From Candidatus Collierbacteria bacterium (GTDB taxonomy: Bacteria > Patescibacteriota > Microgenomatia > UBA1400 > MFAQ01), in assembly GCA_023245265.1 (NCBI GenBank), contig JAHFKQ010000002.1, positions 1-38,592 on the forward strand: 38,592 nucleotides of DNA. The letters run 5' to 3'. The notes under the pieces are model-generated. The model saw nothing but the letters and a program-made list of their open reading frames with translations. It ran no database searches and was not told the DNA's origin. This document shows, in pieces, positions 9,596 through 38,592 of the stretch (positions within the stretch are counted from its first letter, which is position 1; each line of letters opens with the position of its first letter). Made by a program: the position numbers and the translations under genes.

Positions 9596-10777
9596 ATGAA
9601 AAAACTACCGGTCGCCGTCATCGTCATTCCCACTTTCAATGAAGCCGGTCATACTGCCAAGATGATCGACTATCTCTTTAAAAAAACTTTTCCTAAAATT
9701 ACCAGTTGGCGTTGTATTTTACTTTATGTCGATGGTCACTCTCCCGATGGTACTTGGAAAATTATTCAGGACAAACAGAAACAATATCCAAATCTAGATC
9801 TACTCATCGAAACTAAAAAAGAAGGCATTGGTGCGGCTTATGTCAAAGGTTTTAGGCAGGCTATGTCCAAACATCACGCCGATGTCATTATTGAGTTTGA
9901 TAGTGATTTCCAGCACCCTCCGGCCGCTTTACCGGTCATGCTAAAAGCCATTGAGGATGGATATGACTATGTTTTAGGTTCTCGTAAAATCAAAGGTGGG
10001 AGCAACCCCAAGGGGTGGGGCTTTAAACGACTGTTCTTTAGTGAAGTTGGGGGTTTTATCGCCCGTTTTGTTCTTTTTTTTCCAACCCGGTACTTTTTCC
10101 GTGTCACCGATCCAACTACTGGCTTAAAGGCTACTCGAGTTAAGGGTTTTGTCGACACCATGGATATGGATCATCTCTATTCCCGAAGTTTCGGCTACAA
10201 ACTTGAGTTTTTATATAAAACTATTCAGTTAGGGGCCAAAATCAAAGAAATTCCATTACAGTTCGGTCTCAGAGCAACCGGCGAGTCCAAGATTGAGCCC
10301 CAAACTGCCAAAGATATTTTTCGCTCCGTCTTTTTGTTACGCTACACCGACGCCACCACTCAAAAATTTATCAAGTTCGGTACCATCGGTTTATTTGGTT
10401 TTGTCATCAATAAAGTTGGTTTGGATATTTTTGCCAAGCTTCTCAGTAACCTAATCGGTGTCGTTGGCGTCAGAAACACTGTGGCCAATGCCTTAGCGGC
10501 AGAGTTCTCCATCATCAGTAATTTTATTCTGAACAATCTTTGGACTTTCAAAAACGAAAAGTTAGTTTGGGGGGCGAAGTTGATTCGAAAATTTACCACC
10601 TTCAATCTTAGCTCGGTTGTCTCCGGTATCATTCTCCCTAGTCTCGTCATCGGTCTAGGAACCGAATTTTTTGGTGATGCTTACCGCACTCATTTCCTCA
10701 TTCTCGCTGTCTTCTTCATCACCGTCCCTCTCAACTGGTTCATCTACAACCTCGTGATTTGGAAGAAAAAAGTCTAA
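9596..10777 (+). CDS. Polyprenyl-phosphate sugar synthase (Dpm1/GtrB-like GT2) fused to a C-terminal GtrA-like 4-TM domain
   Basis: N-terminal part: VIVIPTFNEAG..., VDGHSPDGT, GIGAAYVKGF, EFDSDFQHPP (DxD), GSR. C-terminal ~130 aa: FIKFGTIGLFGFVINKVGL...AAEFSIISNFILNNLWTF, typical of the GtrA family. Confidence 0.8.
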   Translation: MKKLPVAVIVIPTFNEAGHTAKMIDYLFKKTFPKITSWRCILLYVDGHSPDGTWKIIQDKQKQYPNLDLLIETKKEGIGAAYVKGFRQAMSKHHADVIIEFDSDFQHPPAALPVMLKAIEDGYDYVLGSRKIKGGSNPKGWGFKRLFFSEVGGFIARFVLFFPTRYFFRVTDPTTGLKATRVKGFVDTMDMDHLYSRSFGYKLEFLYKTIQLGAKIKEIPLQFGLRATGESKIEPQTAKDIFRSVFLLRYTDATTQKFIKFGTIGLFGFVINKVGLDIFAKLLSNLIGVVGVRNTVANALAAEFSIISNFILNNLWTFKNEKLVWGAKLIRKFTTFNLSSVVSGIILPSLVIGLGTEFFGDAYRTHFLILAVFFITVPLNWFIYNLVIWKKKV

Positions 10778-11889
10778 AGGTAAGGAGCCCAGTCAGCTAT
10801 TGGAGCCGTATTGTTTAGGAGGAATGTCCAAGAATAGAGAAGGATCGGAATCATCAGGAGGGCCGCCACGATCTTAAATTCTTTTTTCTGAATCAGCTTA
10901 TCCCACCCAATTAATACCAAAGGAGCGATTGGTAATATATAGCGACTAATATCCCGGTGAGCCACAAAGAGTGTAGAGAGGAAAAAGAGACCGGCGAAGT
11001 AGTACTCAATGGTGAGTTTCTTGTCCCGTAACTTCATCACCCCGGTGCCAAAAATCAGCCAGGTATAAATGACATCTTCCAGCCAGAAACTGCCCACCCA
11101 GGTTTGTCCTTTGGGAGCAAAAACACTAAAAGGTGGCCAAAAAAGGTGGATGTTATCGCCACTATGGAAGTAAGCCCAAAAGTCGCCGGTGCGCACTCCA
11201 TAGAACCAAAACAAGAGTGGTATGGCCAAAAGCTGAAGGAGTAACGGCCAGTATTTTAATTGCAGCTTCTTGGTTTTTATCGATTCCGTCAAGGCAAAGA
11301 TTCCGTAAGCCGCGAAAAGGATAATGGCCGGACTTTTGGTTAGCTGAGCCAGAGCCGCCAGTGCTCCGGACAGCCAAAAGTTTTCTTTGCGAAAGTAGTA
11401 GAGACTGGCCAGAATAAAAAAGATAAACCAAGGCTCCGGCGAGCCGACGGCCCGGACCGCCACAAACCGCGCCGGCAAAAGTAGAAATGTCAGACAGAGC
11501 CAGAAAACATTTTTACTGAGCTTAAACTCTTGCGCATATTTATAAAGCATCAGGAAACACAGCACACTGCCCAAAAGAGTGGCCAGGAGCATGGCTGTTG
11601 GTCCTTTGAGAACAGTATCAAAAATAGATATTATGGCCGGATAAAGAGGAAAATGTGCGGGATAATACTCGGTCGGCAAAGGGGCCGAGAAGGCAGTTTT
11701 AATTTGTTCTTTGTTGTACCAAGTTTTGGCTACTATCAAATAATTGGGTCCGTCAAAATTCTGCCAAAGGGTCTTGGTTCCTCCGGAAAAGTCCATGTTC
11801 CAGCCGGGTAGGTTTATTTTGGCCGCAAATGGCGCCCAGACCAGTAAGGAAAATAAAATCACCAAAATCGTTAAGTACGCTCGTTTCAT
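10774..11889 (-). CDS. Polytopic membrane glycosyltransferase-like protein (GT-C-like, PIG-V/DUF2029-type)
   Basis: About 10 hydrophobic helices. First loop: WQNFDGPNYLIVAKTWY, resembling the W..WD..WY motif of PIG-V-type mannosyltransferases. Its stop overlaps the convergent upstream gene's stop (10774-10777). Confidence 0.5.
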   Translation of the reverse strand: MKRAYLTILVILFSLLVWAPFAAKINLPGWNMDFSGGTKTLWQNFDGPNYLIVAKTWYNKEQIKTAFSAPLPTEYYPAHFPLYPAIISIFDTVLKGPTAMLLATLLGSVLCFLMLYKYAQEFKLSKNVFWLCLTFLLLPARFVAVRAVGSPEPWFIFFILASLYYFRKENFWLSGALAALAQLTKSPAIILFAAYGIFALTESIKTKKLQLKYWPLLLQLLAIPLLFWFYGVRTGDFWAYFHSGDNIHLFWPPFSVFAPKGQTWVGSFWLEDVIYTWLIFGTGVMKLRDKKLTIEYYFAGLFFLSTLFVAHRDISRYILPIAPLVLIGWDKLIQKKEFKIVAALLMIPILLYSWTFLLNNTAPIADWAPYL

Positions 11890-11898
11890 CTAGACTCT

Positions 11899-11908: not shown

Positions 11909-11915
11909 TGTGAGT

Positions 11916-12626
11916 ATGGCGCGACAAATAGAAAAATTGTCAGTTTTCCTGCCGGCTTATAACGAAGAAGCCAGTATCGTCAAAACTGTCAAGAATGTGA
12001 CGGAAAATTTAATTAAAAATGTGCCCGTGTGGGAACTCATTGTCGTCAATGATGGATCCAAAGATAAAACCGGGGCCATTGTCGACAAGCTGGTTGCCAA
12101 AGACAAAAGAATTAGTGTTATCCATCATAATCCTAACCGCGGTTATGGTGGCGCTCTTAAAAGCGGCCTTTATGCTTGTCAATATCCCTGGATTGCCTTC
12201 ATCGACTCCGATGGTCAGTTTGATTTCTCCGAAATAAATCGTTTTCTTGAAGCTCAAGAAAAAACCGGTGCCGATCTGGTCATCGGCTATTACTTAGGTC
12301 GCAAAGTTTCTCTGATCCGCAAATTAAACACTTTCGTCTGGCAGGTTATTGTTAAGCTCCTATTCGGACTTTCGGTTCGGGATATTGATTGTGGTTTCAA
12401 ATTAATCTCCAAGAAAGTCCGGGATAGTATCGAGCCTTTGCAGAGTGAAAGAGGCGCTTTTATTAGTAGTGAGTTTTTGATCAAAGCCAAAAAGAAAGGT
12501 TTTAAGATTGTTGAGATCGGCGTCAGTCATTATCCCCGCGAAAAAGGGGAGGGGACCGGTGCCAATTTGGATGTGATTGTTCAGAGTTTTGTAGATCTTT
12601 TTAAGCTCTGGTATAAACTAAAATGA
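11916..12626 (+). CDS. Polyprenyl-phosphate sugar synthase (Dpm1/GtrB/DPG-synthase-like GT2)
   Basis: LSVFLPAYNEE, VVNDGSKDKT, NRGYGGALKSG, FIDSDGQF, DIDCGFKL. The track start is GTG 11910; ATG 11916 is preferred because of the -10 spacing. Confidence 0.8.
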   Translation: MARQIEKLSVFLPAYNEEASIVKTVKNVTENLIKNVPVWELIVVNDGSKDKTGAIVDKLVAKDKRISVIHHNPNRGYGGALKSGLYACQYPWIAFIDSDGQFDFSEINRFLEAQEKTGADLVIGYYLGRKVSLIRKLNTFVWQVIVKLLFGLSVRDIDCGFKLISKKVRDSIEPLQSERGAFISSEFLIKAKKKGFKIVEIGVSHYPREKGEGTGANLDVIVQSFVDLFKLWYKLK

Positions 12627-14104
12627 TCAATTTTTTCAAAAAGAACAAACTTGAGTCAGTTCTCCTCATTTTAATTTTATTACTCGCCCTTGGTCTCCGT
12701 ACTTATCGTATCGGCGAGTTTATGACCTTCTTGGGAGATGAAGGTCGTGATGTTCGTATCGTCCGAGACCTGGTTACCAAAGGGAACCTGGTCTTTATTG
12801 GGCCTCAGACCAGCATCGGCAATATGTACCTCGGACCTCTCTACTACTATATGATGGCTCCGGCCCTCCTTCTTTCCGGCCTGAACCCCGTCGGACCGGC
12901 GGTTATGATCGCTCTCTTAGGCACTCTCACCGTTTGGCTAACCTGGTTTGTAGGTCGTCGCTGGTTTGGTCCGGCCGCCGGTCTGGTAGCCGCTTTACTT
13001 TATGCCGTTTCACCGGTCGCCATTATTTATGCCCGGGCTTCTTGGAACCCCAACCCCATGCCTTTTTTTGCTCTTCTTTGCATTTGGGGCATCTATGAGG
13101 TCTGGCAGTCTAAGAAATATTTCTGGTTGCCTATTGTAGGAGTTTCTTATGCTTTTGCTTTGCAGATGCATTATTTGGGACTCTTGTTGATTCCGGTTCT
13201 GGGACTTTTTTGGTTACTCTCTTTTTTGCCCATCAAAAAGGAACCTAAAGCCAAATCAATTTTTATCAAACAAACCCTCATTGCTCTCGGTTTGTTCTTG
13301 ATGTTGATGTCACCTTTGGTCCTTTTTGATATCAAGCATCAGGGGATGAACTTTAATGCCTTCAAGGCTTTTTTTACCGATCGTCAAACTACGGTCAATT
13401 TGAATCCGGTCCGTTCGGACCGTTTTCTGCCCATTATCCTAATGACCGTCTCGGATCTGGTTCTGGCCCGTCAAACTTTATTTGCCCCTTTGGCCGCTAC
13501 TCTTCTCCTGTTACTGTCGGTACTTCTCTATCTCAAATCTACTCGCCGGGCTTCGATGCAACTTCTTTTTGTTTGGCTGGGTTTTGCTATCTTGGGGCTG
13601 AGCGTTTACAAGCAGCATGTTTACATCCACTACCTGGGCTTTATTTATCCGGCCGTTTATCTCTTACTGGGATTGCTACTTGGCTACCTTTTAAATCAAA
13701 AATTTTTCCTCAAGATTATCGCCGGTCTAATCGTGATCTTTTTGGTAGGGTACAGTTTATTTTTTAGCCCTGTTAGAGAGACTCCCAACCGCCAACTCCA
13801 GCGGACTGAAGCCGCGGTCGACCTGATTGTCAAAGAGGCAAAGGGTCAACCTTTCAATTTTGGTCTAATCGCCAAGCAAAACTACGATGAATCTTACCGC
13901 TTCTTTTTGGAAAATAAAAAAGCCAATCTGGTTCGGGGGGAGGAAAAGGTCGTCGACCAACTCTTTGTCATTTGCGAAGATGGGGACAAGTGTCAACCTG
14001 AGGGCAACCCCGCTTGGCAAATTGCGGTTTTTGGACCTTCACATGTGGTTGAATCGTGGAATATCGATTATCTAAAAATCTATCGTTTAGTTCACACCAA
14101 ATGA
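12623..14104 (+). CDS. GT-C polytopic membrane glycosyltransferase (ArnT/PMT_2-like), paralog family A member 1
   Basis: ATGA overlap with the upstream GT2. About 12 TM. First-loop motif FLGDEGRD...FIGPQTSIGNMYLGPLYYY and second motif ASWNPNP. C-terminal soluble domain. Confidence 0.65.
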   Translation: MINFFKKNKLESVLLILILLLALGLRTYRIGEFMTFLGDEGRDVRIVRDLVTKGNLVFIGPQTSIGNMYLGPLYYYMMAPALLLSGLNPVGPAVMIALLGTLTVWLTWFVGRRWFGPAAGLVAALLYAVSPVAIIYARASWNPNPMPFFALLCIWGIYEVWQSKKYFWLPIVGVSYAFALQMHYLGLLLIPVLGLFWLLSFLPIKKEPKAKSIFIKQTLIALGLFLMLMSPLVLFDIKHQGMNFNAFKAFFTDRQTTVNLNPVRSDRFLPIILMTVSDLVLARQTLFAPLAATLLLLLSVLLYLKSTRRASMQLLFVWLGFAILGLSVYKQHVYIHYLGFIYPAVYLLLGLLLGYLLNQKFFLKIIAGLIVIFLVGYSLFFSPVRETPNRQLQRTEAAVDLIVKEAKGQPFNFGLIAKQNYDESYRFFLENKKANLVRGEEKVVDQLFVICEDGDKCQPEGNPAWQIAVFGPSHVVESWNIDYLKIYRLVHTK

Positions 14105-14646
14105 GTTCCACTGCCCCTTTATCTCCTCTCATTTGGCTTGATCTGGAATTTACCGATCTTGATGTAAAACAAGGTGTCATCGTCGAAATCGCGACCGTCG
14201 TCACCGACGGCCATCTCCAAATTTTAGGCACCGGGCCGGACCTGGTCATTCATCAGCCGGAGCCGATTCTCCGCAAAATGGTCAAATGGAATCAAGAACA
14301 TTTTACTGAGTCCGGACTGCTCACCGAAATTCGTCAATCTCAAATCACTGTCGAAGAAGCGGAAACGCAAACTTTGGACTTTCTTAAAAAATTTTGTGCA
14401 CCACACACGGCCCTCTTGGCAGGCTCCTCTATCTATATGGACCGGGAATTTTTACGGGTTTACATGCCCCGTCTATATGATTTCGTGCATTACCGGATTG
14501 TCGACACCAACACCTTGAAAGAATTGATGCATCGTTGGTATCCCAGTATCCCGGACTATCCCAAGGTTGAACCCCACCGGGCCCAGGCCGACATTCTGGA
14601 GTCTATTGATGAGTTAAAATATTATCAGACCAATCTTTTTAAGTAG
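14101..14646 (+). CDS. orn: Oligoribonuclease (DEDDh 3'-5' exoribonuclease)
   Basis: LIWLDLEFTDLD...IVEIATVVTD (Exo I), SIYMDREFL, HRAQADILESIDELKYY (Exo III with His). ATG 14101 forms an ATGA overlap with the upstream stop and is preferred over the track start at 14056. Confidence 0.9.
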   Translation: MSSTAPLSPLIWLDLEFTDLDVKQGVIVEIATVVTDGHLQILGTGPDLVIHQPEPILRKMVKWNQEHFTESGLLTEIRQSQITVEEAETQTLDFLKKFCAPHTALLAGSSIYMDREFLRVYMPRLYDFVHYRIVDTNTLKELMHRWYPSIPDYPKVEPHRAQADILESIDELKYYQTNLFK

Positions 14647-14656: not shown

Positions 14657-15415
14657 ATGAAACCGAAGCTTTCGATCGTTCTCAGTAACTATAACGAACA
14701 CGCTAATCTCGAAAGGGGAGTCTTGGAGCAAATGGCCACCTATCTTCGTCAAGCCAAATTTACCTGGGAAGTCATCATTAATGACGATGGTTCCACTGAT
14801 GGAGGGGACAAACTAATCGCCGACTTTGCCAAAAAACACCCCGGCTTTTCCTTGATTCATGGAAATCACGGAGGTAAAGCCGTCGGAATTTGGAATGCTA
14901 TTCAGGTGGCTTCCGGGGAAATCGTTTTGTATACGGATATGGATCAGTCCACTCCTTTGAATGAAATTGAAAAATTACTCCCTTGGTTTGATAAGGGCTT
15001 CGACGTGGTCTTCGGTTCCCGGGGTAAAATGCGCAAAAATTTCCCTTTTTCCCGTCAGCTTGCTTCTTGGGCTTTTCGTTCGATCCGTGGTTTTATGTTG
15101 CTTCATAATGTGGTTGATACTCAGTGCGGTTTCAAAGCCATGAAACTGGCGGTGGCTAAGAATATCTTTCCTTCTTTATCGGTTATCACCAAAAAGGCGA
15201 CCACTAAAGGTTGGACCGTTTCCGCTTTTGATGTCGAACTACTTTTCTTAGCCGAAAAGTTTGGTTATAAATTAAAGGAGGTCGATGTGACTTGGAAAGA
15301 TGAAGACACTTCTAGCAGTAAGCAAAGAGGCTTTATCTCGGAATCCATCGACATGCTTATGCAAATTATTCAAGTTAAGATTAACGACCTAACCAGCAAA
15401 TATGACCAAAAATAA
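14657..15415 (+). CDS. Polyprenyl-phosphate glucosyl/glycosyl synthase (ALG5/DPG-synthase-like GT2)
   Basis: LSIVLSNYNE, INDDGSTDG, TDMDQSTP (DxD), VFGSRG, DTQCGFKAMK. Confidence 0.8.
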   Translation: MKPKLSIVLSNYNEHANLERGVLEQMATYLRQAKFTWEVIINDDGSTDGGDKLIADFAKKHPGFSLIHGNHGGKAVGIWNAIQVASGEIVLYTDMDQSTPLNEIEKLLPWFDKGFDVVFGSRGKMRKNFPFSRQLASWAFRSIRGFMLLHNVVDTQCGFKAMKLAVAKNIFPSLSVITKKATTKGWTVSAFDVELLFLAEKFGYKLKEVDVTWKDEDTSSSKQRGFISESIDMLMQIIQVKINDLTSKYDQK

Positions 15416-16904
15416 AGTTCTTTGGCTACTCGGTTTAGCTGTTACCACTCTGGCTTTGTTTTTCTTTTTTAGACTTTTCAGATTGAATACCGTTCCGGTT
15501 TTTGTCGACGAAGCCATTTATGTCCGTTGGTCTCAGGTCATGCGTACGGAACCAACACTCCGTTTTCTTCCGCTTCAGGACGGTAAACAACCACTTTTTA
15601 TGTGGGCCACCATTCCTTTTTTGAAATTCGTGTCGGATCCTTTAGTTGGAGCTAGACTGCTCTCTGTCTTGGCTGGGGTTGGGTCTCTCGTTGGTCTTGG
15701 GGTCTTGTCTTATCTTCTTTTTTCCGATATTTTTATTGCTCTCTTTAGTACTCTGATCTATGCCATTGTTCCCTTTACCATGTTTTTTGATCGCATGGCC
15801 TTGGCGGATAGTTTATTGGCCTCGTTTGGCCTCTGGTCATTGATTTTTGCCTATCAATTTGCCAAAACTCTGAAAGTTGAGTTTGCCATGTTTCTGGGTT
15901 TTGCCATTGGTGGGGGACTTTTGACCAAGTCACCGGCCATGATTTACTATCCTTGGGCTCTGTTGGCTTTGATATTTTTTGTGGACCACTCAAAGTTAAA
16001 CCGGTCTAACATCATCAAAATTTTCTGGGGTCTCTTTTTGGCTTTAGTGATCTCTCAAGGTATGTATGCCATTCTCCGCCTGGGTGTAGGCTTTCAAATG
16101 ATCGGGGCTCGAAATCAAGATTATGTTTATTCATTTAAAGAAGTTCTTGGTCATCCGTTTATGCCACTGCTGGAAAATCTAACCAAAACCGCCGACTGGC
16201 TTTTTTTACTTCTCTCACCCACGGTTTTAATTCTGGGTCTTCTGGGATTTCTTAATCCCAAAACCAGGCGTCAATATCTTTTTCTGATTCTGATTTCTTT
16301 GCTGCCTCTCTTATTTCAAGCCTTCATCGCCAAGGTTTATACCAGCCGCTACATTCTTTATGCCGTATTGCCTTTGATTCCTTTGGCGGGACTTGGTCTT
16401 CATTGGTTGTCGAGCCGCAAAGGGCGTTTAATTCAAGCCTCCATTGTTTTATTTCTCTCCGTCCCTCTCATTTTGAGCTTTGTTTATCTCTTAAACCCGG
16501 AGATAGCTCCCATGTCTTTCGACATGCGCAGTGGTTATTTCTCGGAGTGGACAGCCGGCACCGGACAAAAGGAGGTGGCCAATTATTTACTCACCGAAGA
16601 AGCCAAAGGCAAGAAGATAGTCGTCTTCACCGAAGGTACTTTTGGGACACTGCCGGATGGTTTACAAATCTATACCGAGGGGCACCCCAATATTACTATC
16701 GTGGGCTCGACACCAAATATTTTTGAAATTCCATCCGGTCTATTAAACACGGCCAAGACCAATGACCGTTTCTTCGTGCTCAATTCATCCCGGAATCATT
16801 TACCCGCGTCCGAAATGGCCAAGTTGGAGCTTATAAAATCCTATCCCAAATTTACTCGGCCCGATGGCTCGTTCGAGTCTCTGCTTTTCTTCCGCCTGAA
16901 ATAA
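15402..16904 (+). CDS. GT-C polytopic membrane glycosyltransferase (PMT_2/ArnT-like, GT39/GT83-type)
   Basis: 14-nt overlap with the upstream GT2. First loop VPVFVDEAIYVRWSQ (DE motif typical of PMT/ArnT-like enzymes). More than 10 TM. C-terminal soluble domain. Confidence 0.7.
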   Translation: MTKNKVLWLLGLAVTTLALFFFFRLFRLNTVPVFVDEAIYVRWSQVMRTEPTLRFLPLQDGKQPLFMWATIPFLKFVSDPLVGARLLSVLAGVGSLVGLGVLSYLLFSDIFIALFSTLIYAIVPFTMFFDRMALADSLLASFGLWSLIFAYQFAKTLKVEFAMFLGFAIGGGLLTKSPAMIYYPWALLALIFFVDHSKLNRSNIIKIFWGLFLALVISQGMYAILRLGVGFQMIGARNQDYVYSFKEVLGHPFMPLLENLTKTADWLFLLLSPTVLILGLLGFLNPKTRRQYLFLILISLLPLLFQAFIAKVYTSRYILYAVLPLIPLAGLGLHWLSSRKGRLIQASIVLFLSVPLILSFVYLLNPEIAPMSFDMRSGYFSEWTAGTGQKEVANYLLTEEAKGKKIVVFTEGTFGTLPDGLQIYTEGHPNITIVGSTPNIFEIPSGLLNTAKTNDRFFVLNSSRNHLPASEMAKLELIKSYPKFTRPDGSFESLLFFRLK

Positions 16905-16933: not shown

Positions 16934-18637
16934 ATGCGTTATTTCTTTTCTACCATTTCTTCTCTCGCCCGCTTTTTCTGGCGATACCGGATTTTAGTGG
17001 TTTTGTTTATTCTCATTATTCCGGCTTTCCAAGATCTGCTTCACCCCGGCTTTTTCCCGATGCACGATGACCTTCAGGTCTTTCGTCTTTTTCAAGTCGA
17101 TAAATGTGTACATGATGGTCAGCTTCCCTGCCGCTGGGTCCCGGATGCTGGCTTCGGCTATGGCTATCCCTTGATGCAATTTTATCCTCCGATGCCTTAT
17201 TACCCCATGGAACTGTTGGTCCTTCTGGGACTTGGTTTTTTCTGGCCGGTCAAAATTATTTTTGCCTTGGCCTTTATTTTTTCGGCTTTCGGAATGTTTC
17301 TCCTGGCCAGAGAATTTTTTGGCAAATGGGGTGGTTTAATTGCCTCGGTAATTTATGTCTACTCTCCTTATCACTCGGTTGATATTTATGTCCGTGGAGC
17401 TCTCAACGAGGCCTGGGGTATGGTATGGTTCCCTTTTGTCTTGCTGTATCTCTATCGTTTGATCAAAGATGACAAAAAACTGCGCAATTTCATACTTCTC
17501 AGTGTCGCCATCGCTCTGCAGATCACTTCACATAATGTCATGACCATGGTTTTCGCCCCTTCGGCCATTCTCTGGGCTCTCTTTTGGCTTTGGCGTACTC
17601 GGAAAATTCAACCTTTAAAAGCCTTAATTCTCTCCGGTATTTTTGGTGTCGGGTTGGCGGCTTTTTTCTTTGTCCCGGTAGTTTTGGAACAAAAGTTTGT
17701 TCATGTGGATTCGATGATGGTTGGCTATTTCAATTATTTAGCTCACTTTGCCGATATTAAACAACTTTTCCTTTCCCGATTCTGGGGGTATGGAGGTTCT
17801 ACCTGGGGTCCGGAAGATGGCATGTCTTTTGCCATCGGTCATATCCAATGGCTGGCCGCCTTTCTCGCCGCGCTGGTCGCTTTCTTCCGGTTGAAAAAAG
17901 CACGAACGACTTCACTGATGATCATCATGGTAGTTTTTCTGGGTTTAGTTTATGCTTTTCTCTCACATGGTCGGTCCGTCGAAATCTGGAAAGTCATCCC
18001 TCTTCTTCAATACGCCCAGTTCCCGTGGCGGTTAGTGGCCCTGATCGTTTTTTACTTTTCCTTCGCTTCAGGTTATCTCGCCACTCTAACCTTACCAAAA
18101 TTTTCCAGGCCCATTTTATTTACCCTTCTGATTTTGGGCACCATTCTGTGGAATATCGAGTTTTTCCATGTCGAGAGACACACCCGTATTACTTTGGGTG
18201 AAAAACTTTCCGGCCTCGCTTGGGAGAATCAAGTCACTGGCGGCATTTTCGATTACTTACCTCGTTCCGCTCCCAAACCCCCCGGAGCCCCCGCCTTTAC
18301 GATCCCCATTTTTGTCGAAGGTTTAGGGGGAGTTGAGAGTTTCCGGTCGGGTACCAATTGGATGAACTTTGCCGTTTTAGTTTCTTCACCTTCTGCTAAA
18401 GTGATGCTCCCTCTTTATACTTATCCCGGTCTGGTTACCAAAGTCGATGGTCAAAAAGTTCTTACCGAGATCGATCCTGATTTGGGTCGAGTAGTGGTGA
18501 CTGTCGGCCAAGGTTTCCACCATCTGGATATCAAGATCGGTTATACCACCGTCCGCTTACTGTCCGATTTAGTGACCCTTTTGTCTCTTGTCATATTAGC
18601 AATGCTCATCTCTCATGATCGAAAACACCCCGCCTGA
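16934..18637 (+). CDS. Large polytopic membrane protein, GT-C-like (resembles the 'PTPS-related' integral membrane family)
   Basis: First loop FFPMHDDLQVFRLFQ...RWVPDAGFGYGYPLMQFYPPMPYY, similar to the W.P...GYP..FYPP..YY signature I associate with that family. About 12 TM plus a C-terminal ~150-aa beta-rich domain and a final TM. Confidence 0.5.
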   Translation: MRYFFSTISSLARFFWRYRILVVLFILIIPAFQDLLHPGFFPMHDDLQVFRLFQVDKCVHDGQLPCRWVPDAGFGYGYPLMQFYPPMPYYPMELLVLLGLGFFWPVKIIFALAFIFSAFGMFLLAREFFGKWGGLIASVIYVYSPYHSVDIYVRGALNEAWGMVWFPFVLLYLYRLIKDDKKLRNFILLSVAIALQITSHNVMTMVFAPSAILWALFWLWRTRKIQPLKALILSGIFGVGLAAFFFVPVVLEQKFVHVDSMMVGYFNYLAHFADIKQLFLSRFWGYGGSTWGPEDGMSFAIGHIQWLAAFLAALVAFFRLKKARTTSLMIIMVVFLGLVYAFLSHGRSVEIWKVIPLLQYAQFPWRLVALIVFYFSFASGYLATLTLPKFSRPILFTLLILGTILWNIEFFHVERHTRITLGEKLSGLAWENQVTGGIFDYLPRSAPKPPGAPAFTIPIFVEGLGGVESFRSGTNWMNFAVLVSSPSAKVMLPLYTYPGLVTKVDGQKVLTEIDPDLGRVVVTVGQGFHHLDIKIGYTTVRLLSDLVTLLSLVILAMLISHDRKHPA

Positions 18638-32259: not shown

Positions 32260-32292
32260 TCTCAAGACTCATTCTAACATTACCCATTGTCT

Positions 32293-33189: not shown

Positions 33190-34010
33190 AGCCCGAACTA
33201 TCCATCATCACTGTGGGTTACAAATCCGAAAAAACCATCGGACCATTTTTAGATTCTATTCAGAAAAACCGTGATGGCATTATCAAAGAAATCATTGTCG
33301 TCGATAACTACCCGGGCGATCGGGGAGCTCAAATTGCCGAAAAACACCCGCTTAAGCCTAGGGTAATTCGAAATACCGAAAATGTCGGCTTTTCAATCGC
33401 TATTAACCAAGGTATCAAGGTTGCTCGCGGCGAGTACATTTTAATTATCAACCCGGATACCAGACTTATTGGTTCTGCTCTCAAACACCTTCTAAGTTTC
33501 GCCAAAAAAACTCCCAAGCTGGGAGCCGTGGCTCCGAGACTTCTCAATAACGATGGTCAAATTCAACCTTCCTGTTTTAAGTTTCCCACTGTCTGGAACG
33601 CTTTCAAGTATTATTTCTTGGGTTGTCAGAATTGTTTTAATAAATATAATCCCGGTGACAAGGTCACTCAAGTAGATGTTGCGGTGATGGCCGCTTTTCT
33701 CGTTCCCAAATCAACTCTGGATTATGTCGGGGGGTTGGATGAAACATATTTTCTTTACTATGAAGATGTTGAGTTTTGCCGTCGACTTCATCGTTTTGGA
33801 TTGCCCGTTTACTACTTACCTCAAGCTAAAGTTCAGCACGCTCATGGAGTCAGTGGCAACTTTGTCAGTCACCTCAAGAGTCCTTTGGCTAAATCGGCGC
33901 AAATTTATCACGGTGTTGTCGGCTCGGCGATTCTCAACTCGGTTCTTTGGGCAGGTCAAAAATGGCAAAAGTTAGGTAAAATCCTTCGCCATTTGCTACC
34001 CCAAAATTAA
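33186..34010 (+). CDS. GT2 glycosyltransferase, WbbL/RfbF-like (candidate rhamnosyltransferase)
   Basis: ATGA overlap with the upstream gene. LSIITVGYKSEKT, VVDNYPGD, NVGFSIAINQG, IINPDT, YYEDVEFCRRLHRFGLPV. Confidence 0.75.
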   Translation: MKPELSIITVGYKSEKTIGPFLDSIQKNRDGIIKEIIVVDNYPGDRGAQIAEKHPLKPRVIRNTENVGFSIAINQGIKVARGEYILIINPDTRLIGSALKHLLSFAKKTPKLGAVAPRLLNNDGQIQPSCFKFPTVWNAFKYYFLGCQNCFNKYNPGDKVTQVDVAVMAAFLVPKSTLDYVGGLDETYFLYYEDVEFCRRLHRFGLPVYYLPQAKVQHAHGVSGNFVSHLKSPLAKSAQIYHGVVGSAILNSVLWAGQKWQKLGKILRHLLPQN

Positions 34011-35548
34011 GGATAGTTATTAGTTAGACAGTCTTTAGCTTTAGATAGCCGCTTTTCCAAATAAAAGTGTCCTATTTCGGTCGTTTCTACCACTTTGGAA
34101 AATAAGTTCTCTTCTTGGGTGTCGGCGTCAATCAGTCTTCTCGGGATACCACCATATGGCTCTCTCATTAAAAATCTGACGCAAGTACTGCCTTTTTTAG
34201 GCACCGGTAATTCACCCGGAAAACCCAGGGCATTTCCGGTCTCGTAGTAGGGAAGATAATGATACTTTTTCTTCCCATACTGGGTAAAAAGATAGGCCCA
34301 GACTGTTTGAATTTTGTAGGGCATTGTCGTTGCTCTCACGGTAAAACTTCTGGTGCCGGCCCAATCATACATCTCTTCCATAACTTTTATTTCATCTTGT
34401 AAAAGCATAAACTGCTGGGTTTTGATGTCTTCCATTAGCCCTTCTTTGTTGCGAACCAATATCTGGGAAAGATTCCCCCACATGGCCAAGATTATTAGTC
34501 CGGCTGTGATCACTTTATTATGGTCCCAGAGTCGGTCCAAAAAACCCGCGAAGCCAATTATTAGTCCAGTACCAATCCCAACATTGATAAAGTAGGCGTT
34601 GTAGGAACCCAGAACCAAGATCAATATGCCTCCAAAGATCCAGGTCAAAAGTAAACGGTACTCAATTTTTTTTCTGGCCTGAAAAAACCAAAATATTACA
34701 ATTCCCACCGCCATCGGCCATAAATATCGGCTACTCCAGGGCCAAAAATTATCATGCCACATCAAAATCCACCTTTGCAAAAACACTAGCCAGGCCGGGT
34801 CATTCGAAGATCGATAGCCTGTCGTCAGAATCTTCGTCACAATCTCCAAACTTCTAAAGCCATTCTTGAATTCGCCCAGAATATAGGAGGAGAAAATACT
34901 GAGACCGAGTAATATCGCCGTTAATCTAGATTTTAGACTGATCGAGGGAATCTCTTTTTTTAGTAAAAGCAACAAGATGCCGGCCAGAGGGATTAAAGTA
35001 ACCAGAAAAATTTCGAACTGTGCCCCAGAAGCGACCCCTAAAGCCATGAGGGGCAAACCCCAAAACTTGTTTTTAGATTTTAGCAGGATCACTGCACCGC
35101 CAAAAAGGCTAATCCACGACCAAACTGCCAAACTCGGATTGCCGTAATACATCGCATATTGGCTGGACTCAAAAGAGACGGCGAACAAGAGAGCCGCCAA
35201 ATAGGCCGCTCTTTTTCCCAAGAGTTTCTCGGTGATCCAGAAGATGGGTAGGATGGCCAAGGCGTTTAAAAGTCTAAAGATAGCCGCGACGAAGTAGGGG
35301 CTACCACTGCCGAGTAAATACAGGATTCCGGTCAGGTACCAGTGTAGTACCCCATGATTCAAGCCGGTCACCCCATTGGTGGGTGGTCCAATTAGTTTTA
35401 TATCTCCTTGTGTGTAAATTGCTTGAGAAACGAAGGCGTCTCTGGCTTCATCAAATCCAAAGTACACATTTTGGGTAAAGTGGTAGAACCTAGAAAAAAT
35501 CGCTAAAAATATTATCGGAAGCCACCAGTACCACTTTATGTCTTTCAC
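34007..35548 (-). CDS. GT-C polytopic membrane glycosyltransferase, paralog family A member 4
   Basis: GTG start (no alternative in frame). First loop FGFDEARDAFVSQAIYTQGDIKLIGPPTNGVTGLNHGVLHWY. About 12 TM plus a C-terminal soluble domain. Its stop shares TTAA (34007-34010) with the convergent GT2. Confidence 0.6.
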   Translation of the reverse strand: MKDIKWYWWLPIIFLAIFSRFYHFTQNVYFGFDEARDAFVSQAIYTQGDIKLIGPPTNGVTGLNHGVLHWYLTGILYLLGSGSPYFVAAIFRLLNALAILPIFWITEKLLGKRAAYLAALLFAVSFESSQYAMYYGNPSLAVWSWISLFGGAVILLKSKNKFWGLPLMALGVASGAQFEIFLVTLIPLAGILLLLLKKEIPSISLKSRLTAILLGLSIFSSYILGEFKNGFRSLEIVTKILTTGYRSSNDPAWLVFLQRWILMWHDNFWPWSSRYLWPMAVGIVIFWFFQARKKIEYRLLLTWIFGGILILVLGSYNAYFINVGIGTGLIIGFAGFLDRLWDHNKVITAGLIILAMWGNLSQILVRNKEGLMEDIKTQQFMLLQDEIKVMEEMYDWAGTRSFTVRATTMPYKIQTVWAYLFTQYGKKKYHYLPYYETGNALGFPGELPVPKKGSTCVRFLMREPYGGIPRRLIDADTQEENLFSKVVETTEIGHFYLEKRLSKAKDCLTNNYP

Positions 35549-35608: not shown

Positions 35609-36790
35609 ATGGAAAAATATTTCAAATGGTTTTTAGGTCTTGGTCTTATCATACGCCTGGTCCTGGCCACCGTCACATATCACTCTGACTTAGGGGCTTT
35701 CGCCCAAGCCGGCCGAGCCATCGTCGGAGAGGGAAAATGGCTGAGTTTTTATGATACGATGCTGACTCCCAAGGTCGACACAGTTTTCAATTATCAGCCT
35801 CTTGCCTATTTAATTCCGGCCTCGTTTTATCTGCCTTTTAAAGGTATCGTCTTAGCTACGGGGGATCTCGTTAAAAATCGAGACTGGGTGTGGTCATCCA
35901 CCTCCTATTTCAATCCGCTTCTGCTTCTTTACAAGTTTCCGATGATGCTGGCGGATCTGGCTTTCCTCTGGCTCTTACCCAAATTTTTTATCGATCAAAA
36001 AAAGAAACAACTGGTGATGCTTTTTTGGTTACTTAATCCAGTGGCCATTTTTGTCAGTTCAATGATGGGGCAGGTTGATATTATTATCGCCTTCTTTATC
36101 ACCGCCGGCTTTTATTTCTATCAAAAAGATCGCCCGTTTTTGTCCGTTTTACTTATCGCCTTATCTGCTCTCATCAAGCCGGCTGGGTTAATCCTTATTC
36201 CCTTGCTGGCCCTTCACTATTTGACCACTCACCGCAAATTTATTCCGGCAGTGTCTTTAGCCTTTACCGGATTTGGTGTTTACGCTTTGGGTATTCTGCC
36301 CTACCTCAGCTCAATCGCTTACCGCCAATACGCTTTATTTGCCGAGCAAATAGGCAAAAGTACCTATGCGGCCATTAGCATCGCTTCCGGACATGACATT
36401 CCTTGGTTCTTTATTGCCTATCTTCTAATCTTGATTTTAGTTTGGCACCGGAAACTTTCTTTTACAACCGCCTCAGCGGCTGCACTTTTGTCCAGTCTGG
36501 CTTTTTCTCATTTTCACCCCCAGTGGTTAGTCTGGATTTTACCTTGGCTTACTATTTTCGTCATCTCGAAAGAAGATTATTTTCTCTACCTAGTTGTAAT
36601 CGCTTGTTGGTTCATTATTCTATTATCATTTGACGCAACTCTTCATCTTCAGCTCTTTATTCATTCAAATCTGACACTTCCTCAAGTCTTAAGGGGGAGC
36701 CCTTCTTTCTTTGAAATTGTCCAGTTAGCCCGGGCCGGTCTGATTGCCACTCTTATTTGGATAATTGGCGGTGTCCATGAAGCCAACTAA
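35609..36790 (+). CDS. GT-C-like polytopic membrane protein (DUF2029/GT87- or ALG6/8-like), tandem paralog 1
   Basis: About 11 TM. Motifs YHSDLGAF, FNYQPLAYLIP, YKFPMMLADLAFLWLL, LLNPVAIFVSSMMGQVDIII, ALIKPAGLILIPLL. Confidence 0.55.
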   Translation: MEKYFKWFLGLGLIIRLVLATVTYHSDLGAFAQAGRAIVGEGKWLSFYDTMLTPKVDTVFNYQPLAYLIPASFYLPFKGIVLATGDLVKNRDWVWSSTSYFNPLLLLYKFPMMLADLAFLWLLPKFFIDQKKKQLVMLFWLLNPVAIFVSSMMGQVDIIIAFFITAGFYFYQKDRPFLSVLLIALSALIKPAGLILIPLLALHYLTTHRKFIPAVSLAFTGFGVYALGILPYLSSIAYRQYALFAEQIGKSTYAAISIASGHDIPWFFIAYLLILILVWHRKLSFTTASAAALLSSLAFSHFHPQWLVWILPWLTIFVISKEDYFLYLVVIACWFIILLSFDATLHLQLFIHSNLTLPQVLRGSPSFFEIVQLARAGLIATLIWIIGGVHEAN

Positions 36791-37916
36791 ATCGTTACTC
36801 TTTTTGCTCTGCCTGGCTTTCTTAGTCAGACTTTGCTTTCTATATCCCCAGTTTTCCGGTGATGTCAAGAATCATTTGGCCTGGGGTAATGGTTTTTTGG
36901 TTTCACCAATTGGTTTTTATGATCAACATTTTCCGGGATTTAATGATCCCAATTATCCTCCGGTGGCAATTTTCTTATTTGCTTTCTCCAATCTTTTTTT
37001 AACCTTCTCCAATAACATCTTAAATTTTTTAAATCATAACTTTGCCATTTTTCCTTCCGTCTTAATTCCTTTATTCAATTCGGAAAACATGCGTATGGGC
37101 TTTTTGAAGTTGCCGGCAATTTTTGCCGATTTGGGTACCGGATGGCTTCTTTATAAAATTATTCGAGCTAGATCGGGCAAATTTCCTCTACTACTGTCTT
37201 CATTGTATCTGTTCAATCCGGCCGTAATTTACATTAGTTCGGTTTGGGGCCAAATTGAGTCTTTGACGATCTTCTTTTTGATTTACTCACTTTATCAAGC
37301 AATTTATGGTGGTCGAAAAAAATTCATTTCCATTGGCCTATTTATTTTGGCGGCTTTAGTCAAGCAAACAGCGCTCTGGTTTTTACCCTTTTTTCTCCTT
37401 TTTTGGCTAAAAGAAATGAAGGTTCGGGAATTTATTCAGGGAGTCTTTCTGGGCTTAGCCACTTTTATTTTGGCTTATCTTCCTTTTGGTTTACTACCTT
37501 GGACAGCACTCAAAATATATTTTTCGTCATTGTCCGGCTCTTCGACCGTCGTGGCCGATGCCGCTTGGAATTTCTGGTCATTCTTTTTTCGAGCCGGTAC
37601 TCCGGATTCGGTTAGTTTGGGATTTTTAACTCTGCGCCAATTTTCTATTTTACTTTTAGCCGCCATTTTACTTATTCTGCTGGTAAAGCTCTATCGCCAC
37701 TTTTCTATGCTCCTTTTTTACAATTATTTATTTATCTGGTCACTGGCCATTTTCTTTTTTCAGACTAGAGTTCACGAAAGGCATCTGGCTTTTTCTTTGG
37801 TTTTTTTATTATTATTACCCCGCCTAAATCTCCGCCTCATACTTCTATATTTTTTATTGACGGGTTTCCATCTGGGCAATCTTTTTTCCAGTCTTAAATT
37901 ACCTTTTTTGAAATGA
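36777..37916 (+). CDS. GT-C-like polytopic membrane protein (DUF2029/GT87- or ALG6/8-like), tandem paralog 2
   Basis: Collinear motifs with the upstream gene: FSGDVKNH, DPNYPPVAIFLF, LKLPAIFADLGTGWLL, LFNPAVIYISSVWGQIESLT, ALVKQTALWFLPFF. ATG 36777 (14-nt overlap) is preferred over the track's TTG 36765. Confidence 0.55.
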   Translation: MKPTKSLLFLLCLAFLVRLCFLYPQFSGDVKNHLAWGNGFLVSPIGFYDQHFPGFNDPNYPPVAIFLFAFSNLFLTFSNNILNFLNHNFAIFPSVLIPLFNSENMRMGFLKLPAIFADLGTGWLLYKIIRARSGKFPLLLSSLYLFNPAVIYISSVWGQIESLTIFFLIYSLYQAIYGGRKKFISIGLFILAALVKQTALWFLPFFLLFWLKEMKVREFIQGVFLGLATFILAYLPFGLLPWTALKIYFSSLSGSSTVVADAAWNFWSFFFRAGTPDSVSLGFLTLRQFSILLLAAILLILLVKLYRHFSMLLFYNYLFIWSLAIFFFQTRVHERHLAFSLVFLLLLPRLNLRLILLYFLLTGFHLGNLFSSLKLPFLK

Positions 37917-38592
37917 CCTACCGGAAGGTTCTTTTGATTCTGATTATTATTCTTTCACTTTTTTTTAAATGTTATCGTTTGACTGATAGATATGGTTTTA
38001 GTTGGGATCAAGAAGATGACGCTTTAAAAACGATGTCTATGGTTTGGAATCGGAAACCGTTACTGATCGGACCCAGAGTGGCCAGTGAAAATGGATTCTT
38101 TGCCGGTCCATTTCATTATTACTTTCTCTTACCCTTTTATTTCCTGGGTCAAGGTAGTCCTTACGCCGGCGTGGCCGCCATGATGACCATCGATATCCTG
38201 ACCGTGATGGCATATTTTCTGGTGGGTCATCGTCTTTATGGAGAAAAGGTTGGTTTTCTGGCCGCCTTCGTGGCCGCGTGCAAAACCGGCCTCACTTCTT
38301 GGAATGCGATGTATATTCCTTTAGTTGCCGTTATTGGATACTATCTTTGTGTAGAACAAATAAAAACCGGGCGTTACTTTTATATTTTGGTCGCCTTTAC
38401 CGGTTTAGCCGCCAACCTTCATCTTGTCCCTGCTTCGCTCATACCCTTAGCTTTGTTAGCCATAATTTTTTCCACCCCTCGACCCTCTCCCCTCAAATTA
38501 TTAAAAGGTTTGGCCATTTTTTCTTTATTCTTTGCCCCGCTCATTCTTTTTGATCTACGCCACCATTTTTTAAATCTTCAAAAATTACTGGA
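37913..38592 (+). CDS. GT-C polytopic membrane glycosyltransferase, paralog family A member 5 (3'-truncated by window end; not in the supplied ORF track)
   Basis: I translated this by hand. ATG 37913 forms an ATGA overlap with the upstream stop. The frame stays open to the last base and reads MTYRKVLLILIIILSLFFKCYRL...FSWDQEDDALKTMSMVWNRKPLLIGPRVASENGFFAGPFHYY...LTSWNAMY... Confidence 0.6.
   Translation, partial: MTYRKVLLILIIILSLFFKCYRLTDRYGFSWDQEDDALKTMSMVWNRKPLLIGPRVASENGFFAGPFHYYFLLPFYFLGQGSPYAGVAAMMTIDILTVMAYFLVGHRLYGEKVGFLAAFVAACKTGLTSWNAMYIPLVAVIGYYLCVEQIKTGRYFYILVAFTGLAANLHLVPASLIPLALLAIIFSTPRPSPLKLLKGLAIFSLFFAPLILFDLRHHFLNLQKLL

Follow-up and report, generated by a model that had tools for sequence, protein, structure and literature searches.

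A conserved locus dense in GT-C glycosyltransferases in Candidatus Collierbacteria points to an undescribed complex surface glycan of Microgenomates

We analyzed a 38,592-nucleotide stretch of DNA from Candidatus Collierbacteria bacterium (assembly GCA_023245265.1, contig JAHFKQ010000002.1, positions 1 to 38,592; "the window" below), in which the region 9596-38592 encodes 12 membrane proteins of the GT-C glycosyltransferase type among cytoplasmic enzymes of glycosyltransferase families 2 and 4 (GT2 and GT4) and a Wzx-family flippase. On balance, we judge it probable that this region is the first ≈29 kb of a conserved Microgenomates envelope-glycan super-locus of at least ≈50 kb that serves to make or extend a complex surface glycan, with most steps taking place at the outer face of the cytoplasmic membrane. 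This reading rests on direct observations: which genes are present and to which families and folds they belong, how well motifs are conserved, that lipid-sugar synthases are paired with GT-Cs, that a flippase is encoded, that gene order is kept among relatives, and that GT-Cs outnumber synthases. An earlier note on this DNA had proposed the multi-step, extracytoplasmic construction of a glycan by what looked like a streamlined genome. That proposal is supported by the results below, with function read from the logic of the families involved, and the guess about the genome was right, as the host is an uncultured member of the Microgenomates of the Candidate Phyla Radiation (CPR, or Patescibacteria).

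The locus and the adjoining rhamnose genes are listed below, with genes named by their low coordinate, which is also what the earlier note called the start of minus-strand genes. Three starts were corrected by comparison with a sister genome and database proteins (the RNase_T gene, 14101; a GT2, 25148, whose open reading frame [ORF] was listed as 24944; and a GT-C, 36777, listed as 36765).

2423..5657, plus: rmlA-rmlB-rmlC-rmlD, dTDP-L-rhamnose supply, with gaps of 2-27 nt between genes
9596..10777, plus: predicted polyprenyl-phosphate-hexose synthase, a GT2 catalytic domain with a fused GtrA/DPMS-type transmembrane (TM) domain (Pfam, PDB match)
10774..11889, minus: small GT-C, 371 amino acids (aa), convergent with 9596 with a 4-nt overlap (sub-cut-off Pfam)
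11910..12626, plus: soluble GT2, 238 aa, candidate polyprenyl-phosphate-sugar synthase (like ArnC, GtrB, PpgS)
12623..14104, plus: GT-C of PMT_2 type, 493 aa (Pfam)
14101..14646, plus: RNase_T-type 3'-5' exonuclease (RNase_T 3.8e-23; start taken from the sister genome)
14657..15415, plus: soluble GT2, 252 aa, candidate polyprenyl-phosphate-sugar synthase (like GtrB, ArnC, DPMS)
15402..16904, plus: GT-C of PMT_2/PMT type, 500 aa (Pfam)
16934..18637, plus: GT-C of PMT_2/PTPS_related type, YfhO-related, 567 aa (Pfam, hhalign)
18615..20093, plus: Wzx/MOP-family flippase of lipid-linked sugars (Polysacc_synt_3 2.3e-52)
20086..23262, plus: 1058-aa fusion of a CE4/GH-like barrel and a GT-C module (AlphaFold2 model, Foldseek)
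23265-24182, 24217-25146 and 25148-25951, plus: three cytoplasmic GT2s (Glycos_transf_2 1e-16, Glyco_tranf_2_3 2.8e-11 and Glycos_transf_2 2.3e-17)
25933..27369, plus: GT-C, 478 aa, paralogue of 12623 (blastp, hhalign)
27370..28437, plus: cytoplasmic GT4 of GT-B fold (Glycos_transf_1 2.4e-23)
28455..30047, plus: GT-C of PMT_2 type, 530 aa (Pfam)
30001..32265, minus: GT-C of the YfhO family, 754 aa (Pfam)
32308-33189 and 33186-34010, plus: two cytoplasmic GT2s (Glycos_transf_2 6.6e-18 and 3.4e-21)
34007..35548, minus: PMT_2-like GT-C, 513 aa (sub-cut-off Pfam, blastp)
35609..36790, plus: small GT87-like GT-C, 393 aa (near-cut-off Pfam)
36777..37916, plus: small ALG6/PimE-like GT-C, 379 aa (AlphaFold2 model, Foldseek)
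37913..38592, plus: PMT_2-like GT-C, 226 aa seen, interrupted by the contig end (blastp, hhalign)

An ORF was present at every position where the earlier note had placed one of 12 polytopic proteins, and hydropathy analysis predicted 5-11 TM segments for each of the 11 complete proteins and 4 for the partial 37913. Together, the 12 genes occupy 18,821 of 28,997 bp (64.9%), in agreement with the former estimate of about 18.8 kb or two thirds, and the former counts of eight GT2s (three synthase-like and five others), one GT4, and one Wzx were exact by Pfam. The complete rmlABCD set was likewise located upstream as claimed (NTP_transferase, 6.6e-61; GDP_Man_Dehyd/Epimerase, 2.8e-82; dTDP_sugar_isom, 1e-13; RmlD_sub_bind, 1.2e-34). 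Intergenic gaps in the run 11910-30047 do not exceed 34 nt. The G+C content is uniform over the window (0.39-0.48) and thus gives no sign of a recent island; no tRNA genes or Rfam families were detected in the window.

Profile, paralogy, and fold evidence supported the assignment of all 12 membrane proteins to one GT-C homology network, and not to transporters or unrelated folds, the outcome that the earlier note had said would overturn its view. Matches to Pfam GT-C families (PMT_2, PMT, STT3, PTPS_related, YfhO, and GT87) were obtained for 8 of the 12 proteins, 5 of which reached the curated cut-off. PMT_2 scored at or above its gathering score in 12623 (44.3 bits, 2.8e-11), 15402 (40.3 bits, 4.8e-10), 16934 (31.6 bits, 2.4e-7), and 28455 (29.0 bits, 1.5e-6), and PMT_2 matches extended over almost the whole 160-position model. 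Additional matches were found to the N-terminal STT3 model in 12623 (25.8 bits), to PMT (PF02366) in 15402 (31.8 bits, 1.4e-7, over the cut-off), which carries an invariant DE, and to PTPS_related in 16934 (3.1e-6), which also aligned with the family of 30001 (hhalign 99.2%), itself a YfhO homologue (1.7e-10, 40.4 bits, residues 60-637). Scores under the cut-off were recorded for 10774 (PMT_2, 22.7 bits; PMT, 20.2 bits), 34007 (PMT_2, 22.4 bits), and 35609 (GT87, 24.5 bits, just short of its cut-off of 25), whose orthologue at locus L082 was recorded with PF09594; 10774 also matched the NCBIfam AZOBR_p60025 glycopolymer-formation domain (2.7e-9). Neither Pfam nor NCBIfam gave any match for 20086, 25933, 36777, or 37913.

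Comparison of the proteins with each other joined these families. By blastp, 25933 is paralogous to 12623 (3.2e-17; hhalign 99.8%), 34007 is related to 12623 (8e-9) and 37913 (4e-12), and 37913 is related to 12623, 28455, and 34007 (1e-12 to 2e-15; hhalign 100% with the 12623 family). By hhalign, the family of 36777 aligned with those of 35609 (99.5%) and 10774 (85.8%), and the membrane module of 20086 aligned with the PMT_2-type family of 28455 (89.3%, 262 columns). All families are interlinked in this way, through blastp matches or hhalign values of at least 82%. Identity among the paralogues in the window was 23-33% (blastp), which implies duplications older than the divergence of these lineages. 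Features that define the best known GT-C families were lacking: no window protein matched Emb or AftA in Pfam, GT87 remained under its cut-off (35609), and PimE was reached by fold alone (36777, E 7.5e-4); PMT_4TMC and MIR domains gave no match in any window protein; and no WWD motif occurs in 20086 or the five other GT-Cs checked, nor WxDxG in 20086. Thus, the locus proteins fall outside the Emb/Aft and STT3 families and probably outside the canonical PMT family.

An acidic residue in the first outward loop is the hallmark of GT-Cs on which the earlier note had relied, and its conservation in orthologues bore this out for 11 of the 12 proteins. In orthologue sets drawn from 80 related loci, an Asp or Glu straight after TM1 was at least 90% conserved in nine sets of 3-41 sequences each. 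The residues were as follows.

10774: D46, in 17 of 17 sequences
12623: D39/D43, in 'GDEGRD' after TM1
15402: D36-E37, in 'VDEAIY', both invariant
16934: D45-D46, in 'HDD', D45 invariant
20086: D557, the invariant equivalent
25933: D40-E41, in 'WDESRA'
28455: D40, in 'PDQGRD', kept in all sequences
30001: D65, 93% conserved
35609: D27, in all sequences
36777: D29, invariant in the 26-sequence alignment (A2)
37913: D32, in 'WDQEDD'

The twelfth protein, 34007, has 'GFDEARD' after TM1, with a single orthologue at hand, too few for a statement on conservation. Every GT-C has a K/R-rich N-terminus ahead of TM1, as read off the sequences directly rather than from a topology predictor, which by the positive-inside rule implies that the first loop lies outside.

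AlphaFold2 models were built for 36777 and 20086. The model of 36777 (predicted local distance difference test [pLDDT] 91.4, from 26 orthologues) has ≈11-12 helices, and its best match in the PDB by Foldseek was yeast ALG6 (E 7.7e-8, TM-score 0.75); the other confident matches were exclusively GT-Cs, namely GPI mannosyltransferase I, ALG3, mycobacterial PimE, PIG-U, ALG9, and ArnT. The model of 20086 (pLDDT 84.5) consists of an N-terminal TM anchor, an outer (beta/alpha)-barrel at residues ≈26-480, a 13-helix GT-C module at ≈494-917, and a C-terminal outer domain. Its membrane module matched STT3 subunits of oligosaccharyltransferase best (4e-7), followed by DPY19, AglB, PglB, and AftD, and N554, H556, D557, and H561, which lie in its first outer loop, are invariant. 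For both models, confident matches were to GT-Cs only, and transporters appeared just at E>0.01 with TM-scores of ≈0.1. The N-domain of 20086 matched 3lm3, a 'putative glycoside hydrolase/deacetylase' (2.5e-11), and the CE4 folds of HP0310, PdaC, and ArnD (8t0j, E 1.6e-4).

Two specific functions for 20086 were considered and rejected. A functional CE4 deacetylase was set aside, because the metal-binding histidines of the Asp-His-His triad are not conserved; residues 1-480 contain no invariant or near-invariant His across 26 orthologues. An oligosaccharyltransferase of the STT3/PglB/AglB kind was rejected as well, as the fold is STT3-like but WWDxG is absent. The lack of conserved CE4 histidines and of WWD therefore implies that 20086 is neither a canonical deacetylase nor a canonical oligosaccharyltransferase.

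The three GT2s that the earlier note had called Dpm1/GtrB-like were of the right kind. 9596 combines Glycos_transf_2 (4e-22) and GtrA_DPMS_TM (8.5e-11) domains and matched Pyrococcus furiosus DPMS (5mlz) at 1.3e-41 over residues 6-358, which span the catalytic and membrane domains; its best NCBIfam matches include PgfS and AglJ, with scores far under the curated cut-offs. The nearest solved relatives of 11910 were ArnC (4e-14, residues 4-216) and GtrB (1.5e-9), and it matched NCBIfam PpgS end to end (2.6e-14), while 14657 matched GtrB (9.2e-11), ArnC (2.1e-10), and DPMS (8.7e-10). Each of these GT2s adjoins a GT-C, with overlaps of 4 nt (9596/10774), 4 nt (11910/12623), and 14 nt (14657/15402). 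Predicted flippase functions are present both in the GtrA_DPMS_TM domain of 9596 and in the Wzx/MOP protein 18615 (NCBIfam MOP flippase, 4.4e-37, with a weak match to an 'O-glycosylation flippase' model), whose gene overlaps those of the GT-Cs on both sides (16934 and 20086). The other GT2s look like ordinary cytoplasmic enzymes from their sequences; weak matches of 24217 to a rhamnosyltransferase (TIGR01556, 1.6e-17) and of 33186 to rhamnosyltransferase and GlfT1 models (NCBIfam) fit the adjoining rml genes.

The locus is conserved across the lineage and is not a strain-specific antigen island. The nearest relatives that have a name are metagenome-assembled genomes (MAGs) assigned to Candidatus Collierbacteria, Woesebacteria, and the 'Microgenomates group'. 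A profile of the 1058-aa protein 20086 found 116 relatives in species-representative genomes, from which 80 loci were taken, all of them from Microgenomates, and the locus core is syntenic in these 80 species-level genomes. In Collierbacteria, the gene order 10774 (minus strand), 11910, 12623, RNase_T, 14657, 15402, 16934, Wzx, 20086, 23265, 24217, 24944 (the GT2 25148), 27370, 28455, 30001 (minus strand), 32308, 33186 is kept, with orthologues 55-85% identical in protein sequence. The core 15402-16934-Wzx-20086 ... 23265-24944-27370 is retained in Daviesbacteria, Woesebacteria, and Shapirobacteria, as synteny of the kind the earlier note had asked for, and 16934 occurs in 3-5 tandem copies and 20086 in 2-3 in loci of the Daviesbacteria/Woesebacteria type. 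Wzx is present in 72 of the 80 loci, the GT4 27370 in 53, and the GT2s 23265, 24217, and 25148 in 43-64. When the 51 loci of at least 20 kb were scanned with hidden Markov models of the window families, they contained a median of 8 GT-C genes (range 4-12) covering a median of 64% of bases. By comparison, 25933 was found in 2 of 80 loci and the sister genome, and the rarity of 25933, 34007, and 37913 together with the lower conservation of 28455-30001 implies that the distal part is variable. We therefore rejected a recently acquired hypervariable antigen island as an account of the core, in which G+C is even and gene order and sequence are kept across orders; the distal part alone is variable. 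Loci of this composition are thus common, within Microgenomates only, and the literature that we searched contains no description of them.

Two side observations concern these relatives. In Daviesbacteria-type loci (L037, L041, L043, L044, L059, L063, L066, L071, and L081), a copy of 20086 often lies on the opposite strand, and GT-C genes make up as much as 80-90% of the length of these 23-kb loci. Public third-party annotation records of MAGs that carry the locus (L002, L004, L008, L012, and others; L040-L081) often bear taxonomic labels that look wrong: many are called 'uncultured Pseudomonadales bacterium' or 'uncultured Gammaproteobacteria bacterium', and single records are assigned to Spirochaetia and to Clostridia.

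The window is a complete contig and holds a truncated locus, which in the sister genome continues with ≈8 more GT-Cs, GT2 and GT4 enzymes, and sugar-modifying enzymes. The sister contig (Logan ERR5863126_337, 264 kb) aligned with window positions 10094-33262 in one 23.2-kb block at 91% identity, and the segment L084 lies 6.4 kb beyond this block on the same contig; if the two genomes are collinear, this spacing places the start of L084 ≈1 kb past the window end. The gene order in L084 is as follows.

first: the end of a 558-aa membrane protein, unclassified, then a 202-aa protein with four TM segments
next: six tandem PMT_2 genes, 481-558 aa, each with 'xDE' after TM1
next: one GT2 and one GT4, then a 377-aa small GT-C resembling 10774
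14655-15911, plus: a protein of 418 aa with nine TM segments, unmatched in Pfam, whose N-terminus LLRLLAPAEYGEF resembles a MOP/Wzx flippase start
next: a GT2 like 11910 and another GT2
last: a ferredoxin, a B12-radical-SAM enzyme, a short-chain dehydrogenase/reductase (SDR), another GT2, and an epimerase

The 418-aa protein may be a second MOP flippase, judged by its N-terminal motif alone. Equivalent continuations were found on two other contigs, one from JGI (790 kb) and one from Logan (51 kb), and a further 10 kb of the JGI contig encodes additional GT2s, methyltransferases of FkbM type and of class I, a SPASM radical-SAM enzyme, and an epimerase. The JGI extension was recovered by a metagenome scan with a downstream radical-SAM protein as query; a scan with 35609 as query found no relative. 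In all, the full locus comprises ≈19-20 GT-Cs over ≈50 kb and lies within a glycan region that measures at least 60 kb. GT-Cs stand to synthases as 12:3 in the window and as ≈20:4 in the sister genome. By our own estimate, based on contigs of relatives of 0.6-1.1 Mb, the full locus accounts for about 5-8% of the genome.

The modifying enzymes downstream form a set of ferredoxins, B12-binding and SPASM radical-SAM enzymes, an SDR, and FkbM/RfbT-like and class I methyltransferases (L084, 17811-20501; L085, 19393-21575; L088, 12963-13976, 14883-15761, and 18576-19367), which suggests that sugars are modified in unusual ways, for instance by methylation or radical chemistry. On the JGI contig, an HTH_3/Gp49-type gene pair resembling a toxin-antitoxin system (L085, 18595-19253, minus) is inserted in the glycan region and is missing at the matching site of L084.

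From these components, the following pathway can be proposed. Cytoplasmic GT2 and GT4 enzymes (23265, 24217, 25148, 27370, 32308, and 33186) would draw on nucleotide sugars, among them the dTDP-rhamnose supplied by rmlABCD, for the synthesis of a lipid-linked primer, while GT2s of the DPMS/GtrB/ArnC kind (9596, 11910, and 14657) would put single sugars onto polyprenyl phosphate. The GtrA-like domain of 9596 and Wzx 18615 would carry lipid-linked sugars across the membrane, where the 12 GT-Cs (≈20 in the whole locus) would act through the first-loop acidic residue and transfer polyprenyl-phosphate sugars to the growing glycan, with several GT-Cs sharing each donor, as in the assembly of mycobacterial lipomannan/lipoarabinomannan (LM/LAM) and arabinogalactan or the ALG steps in the lumen of the endoplasmic reticulum (ER). 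The fusion protein 20086, translationally coupled to Wzx, would be the best candidate to modify, transfer, or ligate the flipped intermediate. The large excess of GT-Cs over synthases implies a pattern of sequential assembly rather than one-to-one side-chain modules. Synthesis of a primer by GT-A/GT-B enzymes followed by GT-C extension is the established logic of LM/LAM (PMC2440535), and systems that combine a soluble GT-A, a Wzx, and a GT-C have been described, including a variant in Streptococcus pyogenes (PMC8035078).

Several genes that lie beside or within the locus are outside this scheme. An RNase_T/DEDD-type exonuclease gene, not listed in the earlier note, is located inside the GT operon, where it overlaps the upstream GT-C gene 12623 by 4 nt. 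It occupies the same spot in 19 related Collierbacteria-type loci and is absent from Daviesbacteria-type loci; a link to glycan synthesis is not apparent, and it is probably outside the glycan machinery. At 192-1217 (plus), a 341-aa protein contains two ≈150-aa repeats (VHIFKYIDGEQAT... and VHILKYLDGKMAT...), 20% Ser+Thr, and a strongly charged C-terminal tail. It gave no family match, and it could be a surface protein and a target of glycosylation. Between and beside the rml genes and the GT locus (1247-2161 and 5680-8381, plus), several membrane-anchored proteins are encoded, which are a CAP-domain protein, two unknowns, a SurA_N-like chaperone, and a nitroreductase that carries a TM helix at its N-terminus; the ORFs of the two unknowns overlap by 131 nt, so one start was probably miscalled.

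A number of points weigh against this reading of the locus. Three of the 12 GT-C candidates are sub-threshold in Pfam and four have no match, and sequence searches of the PDB with PMT_2-type proteins and with profiles of two families (four GT-Cs singly and the family profiles A3 and A4, at E up to 0.1 or 1) retrieved no solved GT-C; the AlphaFold2 models cover two proteins. 11910 and 14657 lack TM or interface helices and also match generic GT2s (PgaC and the N-terminus of chondroitin synthase), so that they are candidate synthases, with a putative lipid-phosphate acceptor. The donor lipids, sugars, order of steps, acceptor, and product are deduced from family logic, and the data are compatible both with one pathway to one product and with several parallel glycosylation systems encoded side by side, and both with a polysaccharide or lipoglycan and with protein O-glycans; parallel systems and O-glycans are the main rivals. 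Finally, genes for an initiating phosphoglycosyltransferase, Wzy, Wzz, an LCP ligase, and an ABC exporter were looked for in the window, the sister contig (L084 and L086), and the 790-kb JGI contig (L082, L085, and L088) rather than in whole genomes, and none turned up, either in the window or in the ≈30 kb downstream in relatives. For the window, this agrees with the earlier note, as PF00953, PF02397, Wzy_C, Wzz, and ABC models had no match among its ORFs. The features of a Wzx/Wzy-dependent O-antigen or capsule locus are thus lacking in the window and L082-L088, where Wzx was found but PF00953, PF02397, Wzy_C, and Wzz had no match. The lack of a phosphoglycosyltransferase fits a start on a glycolipid (as in LAM), a start on a lipid monophosphate (as in haloarchaeal Agl), or an initiating gene elsewhere in the genome.

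General protein O-glycosylation, in which PMT_2/PMT-like GT-Cs move polyprenyl-phosphate sugars to Ser/Thr of secreted proteins, pilins, or an S-layer (as in actinobacterial Pmt/Ppm1 and streptococcal PgfS/PgfM) and the many paralogues serve different protein targets or add successive sugars, is possible, if rather unlikely. It is consistent with the PMT match of 15402 over the cut-off, the NCBIfam matches of 9596 to PgfS and AglJ and of Wzx to an O-glycosylation flippase, the nearness in fold of the 20086 membrane module to oligosaccharyltransferases, and the Ser/Thr-rich two-repeat protein upstream. However, PMT_4TMC, MIR, and WWDxG are lacking, the NCBIfam scores are far under their curated cut-offs, PMT_2 is a broad family that includes ArnT-like lipid and glycan transferases, and eight GT2s, a GT4, and rml genes suit a polymer or oligosaccharide better than single-sugar modification of proteins. 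It is also unlikely that the locus is a collection of independent three-component decoration modules, each with a GT2, flippase, and GT-C that adds one side-chain sugar to a backbone made elsewhere (teichoic-acid-like or a rhamnan), as in Gtr, CsbB/GtcA/YfhO, and GacI-L (such systems are reviewed in PMC8035078), with no sequential extracytoplasmic assembly. The physical coupling of three GT2/GT-C pairs, the YfhO homologue, the differences between genomes in the distal part (25933, 28455-37913, and the downstream arrays), which are typical of decoration genes, and the rml and rhamnosyltransferase-like genes, which suit a rhamnan backbone, argue for such modules. Against them stand the ≈4-5:1 excess of GT-Cs over synthase-like GT2s, the conservation of core GT-Cs across orders in the manner of housekeeping genes, and the lack of a backbone export system (ABC transporter or Wzy) nearby.

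A role like that of ArnT, in which amino sugars are added to membrane lipids or to lipid II/peptidoglycan, which would tune surface charge with 11910 as the ArnC, the 20086 N-domain as the ArnD, and the GT-Cs as the ArnT counterparts, is very improbable. ArnC is indeed the nearest solved relative of 11910, ArnD is among the CE4 folds matched by 20086, and JGI names many orthologues in the downstream arrays 'Ara4N transferase-like', but automatic annotation names are not evidence, genes of the arnA/arnB type are absent, the CE4 metal site is not conserved in 20086, and 12-20 transferases far exceed the needs of lipid decoration. The view that the membrane proteins are transporters or unrelated folds, with profile matches caused by hydrophobic composition bias, is close to refuted. 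It could draw on the sub-cut-off Pfam scores, the four proteins lacking a match, and the absence of solved structures found by sequence; it is opposed by the nearly full-length PMT_2 matches, the exclusive match of both models to GT-C structures, the position-specific conservation of the acidic motif, and the setting of the genes among GT2, GT4, Wzx, and rml genes.

The favored reading, a sequential assembly of a surface glycan outside the membrane, resembles known systems in mechanism, and what is new is how dense and how large the locus is, how widely it is conserved across a superphylum of the CPR, and the fusion of a CE4/GH-like domain to a GT-C. In typical O-antigen and capsule loci there are zero or one GT-Cs, and in Mycobacterium tuberculosis ≈15-20 are scattered over 4.4 Mb. 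In mycobacterial and corynebacterial LM/LAM and arabinogalactan synthesis, PimA/B and WbbL/GlfT act inside, Ppm1/PpgS-type synthases supply donors, and the GT-Cs PimE, MptA-C, EmbA-C, and AftA-D act outside. The present locus shares with that system the use of cytoplasmic GT-A/GT-B primer enzymes followed by many GT-Cs on few polyprenyl-phosphate-sugar donors (PMC2440535), GT87/PimE-like small GT-Cs, PpgS-like soluble GT2s, rhamnosyl- and GlfT1-like GT2 matches, and, like AftD, a large GT-C with extra outer domains (20086). In contrast to it, the locus has no Emb or AftA match in Pfam and a GT87 likeness that is remote and sub-threshold, forms one contiguous operon-like block where the mycobacterial genes are scattered, and belongs to a CPR host with a genome of ≈0.7-1.1 Mb and no mycolate envelope.

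The multi-component transmembrane systems (GtrABC, CsbB/GtcA/YfhO, GacI/J/K/L, and lactococcal Csd) likewise place a GT2 synthase, a flippase of GtrA or Wzx type, and a GT-C side by side, and share a YfhO homologue and rhamnose supply. However, they use one GT-C per module on a separately made polymer, whereas 12-20 GT-Cs, a 4-5-fold excess, occur here and no separate backbone pathway was seen. We also compared the haloarchaeal Agl pathway (AglJ/AglD, the Wzx-like flippase AglR, AglS, and AglB) and the ER-lumen ALG pathway (ALG3/6/8/9/10/12 and STT3). An archaeal DPMS is the nearest solved relative of 9596, which also has weak AglJ and dolichyl-phosphate-hexose transferase matches, and in fold 36777 is closest to ALG6 and the membrane module of 20086 to STT3/AglB. 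Initiation on a lipid monophosphate is possible in these pathways and would account for the absence of a visible phosphoglycosyltransferase. By contrast, WWDxG is absent here, sequence similarity is remote, N-glycosylated proteins are not known from this lineage, and the likeness is at the level of fold only.

A more far-reaching version of the favored reading, which we consider quite unlikely, is that Microgenomates make a lineage-defining envelope heteropolysaccharide or lipoglycan on the scale of arabinogalactan or LAM without a phosphoglycosyltransferase: an AglJ/DPMS-like GT2 would start on polyprenyl monophosphate, as in haloarchaea, Wzx would flip the product, 20086 would modify it with its CE4/GH-like domain and transfer it en bloc, and ≈20 ALG/PimE/PMT-like GT-Cs would elaborate it outside. 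If true, this would be a bacterial counterpart to archaeal and eukaryotic lumenal glycan assembly that takes up ≈5-8% of a minimal genome.

CPR bacteria (Patescibacteria) are a large part of bacterial diversity, are thought to live attached to hosts, and have a surface chemistry that is little known. GT-C loci in CPR are not described in the literature that we searched: one paper counted '29 genes of glycosyl transferases' in a Microgenomates genome without analysis (PMC7143001), and a survey of CPR protein families does not mention glycosyltransferases (PMC6744442). The present locus offers handles in three candidate lipid-sugar synthases, a deacetylase-like/GT-C fusion, and ALG6/PimE-like enzymes for comparison with the evolution of ER-lumen glycosylation, and it extends GT-C-heavy glycan assembly beyond Mycobacteriales and eukaryotes. 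A genome of less than ≈1 Mb that lacks most biosynthesis retains ≈20 extracytoplasmic glycosyltransferases in one block of at least 50 kb, and their ordered retention across several Microgenomates candidate phyla suggests that the product is central to the envelope or to host contact. The locus thereby suggests that these bacteria carry a complex surface glycan that has yet to be described.

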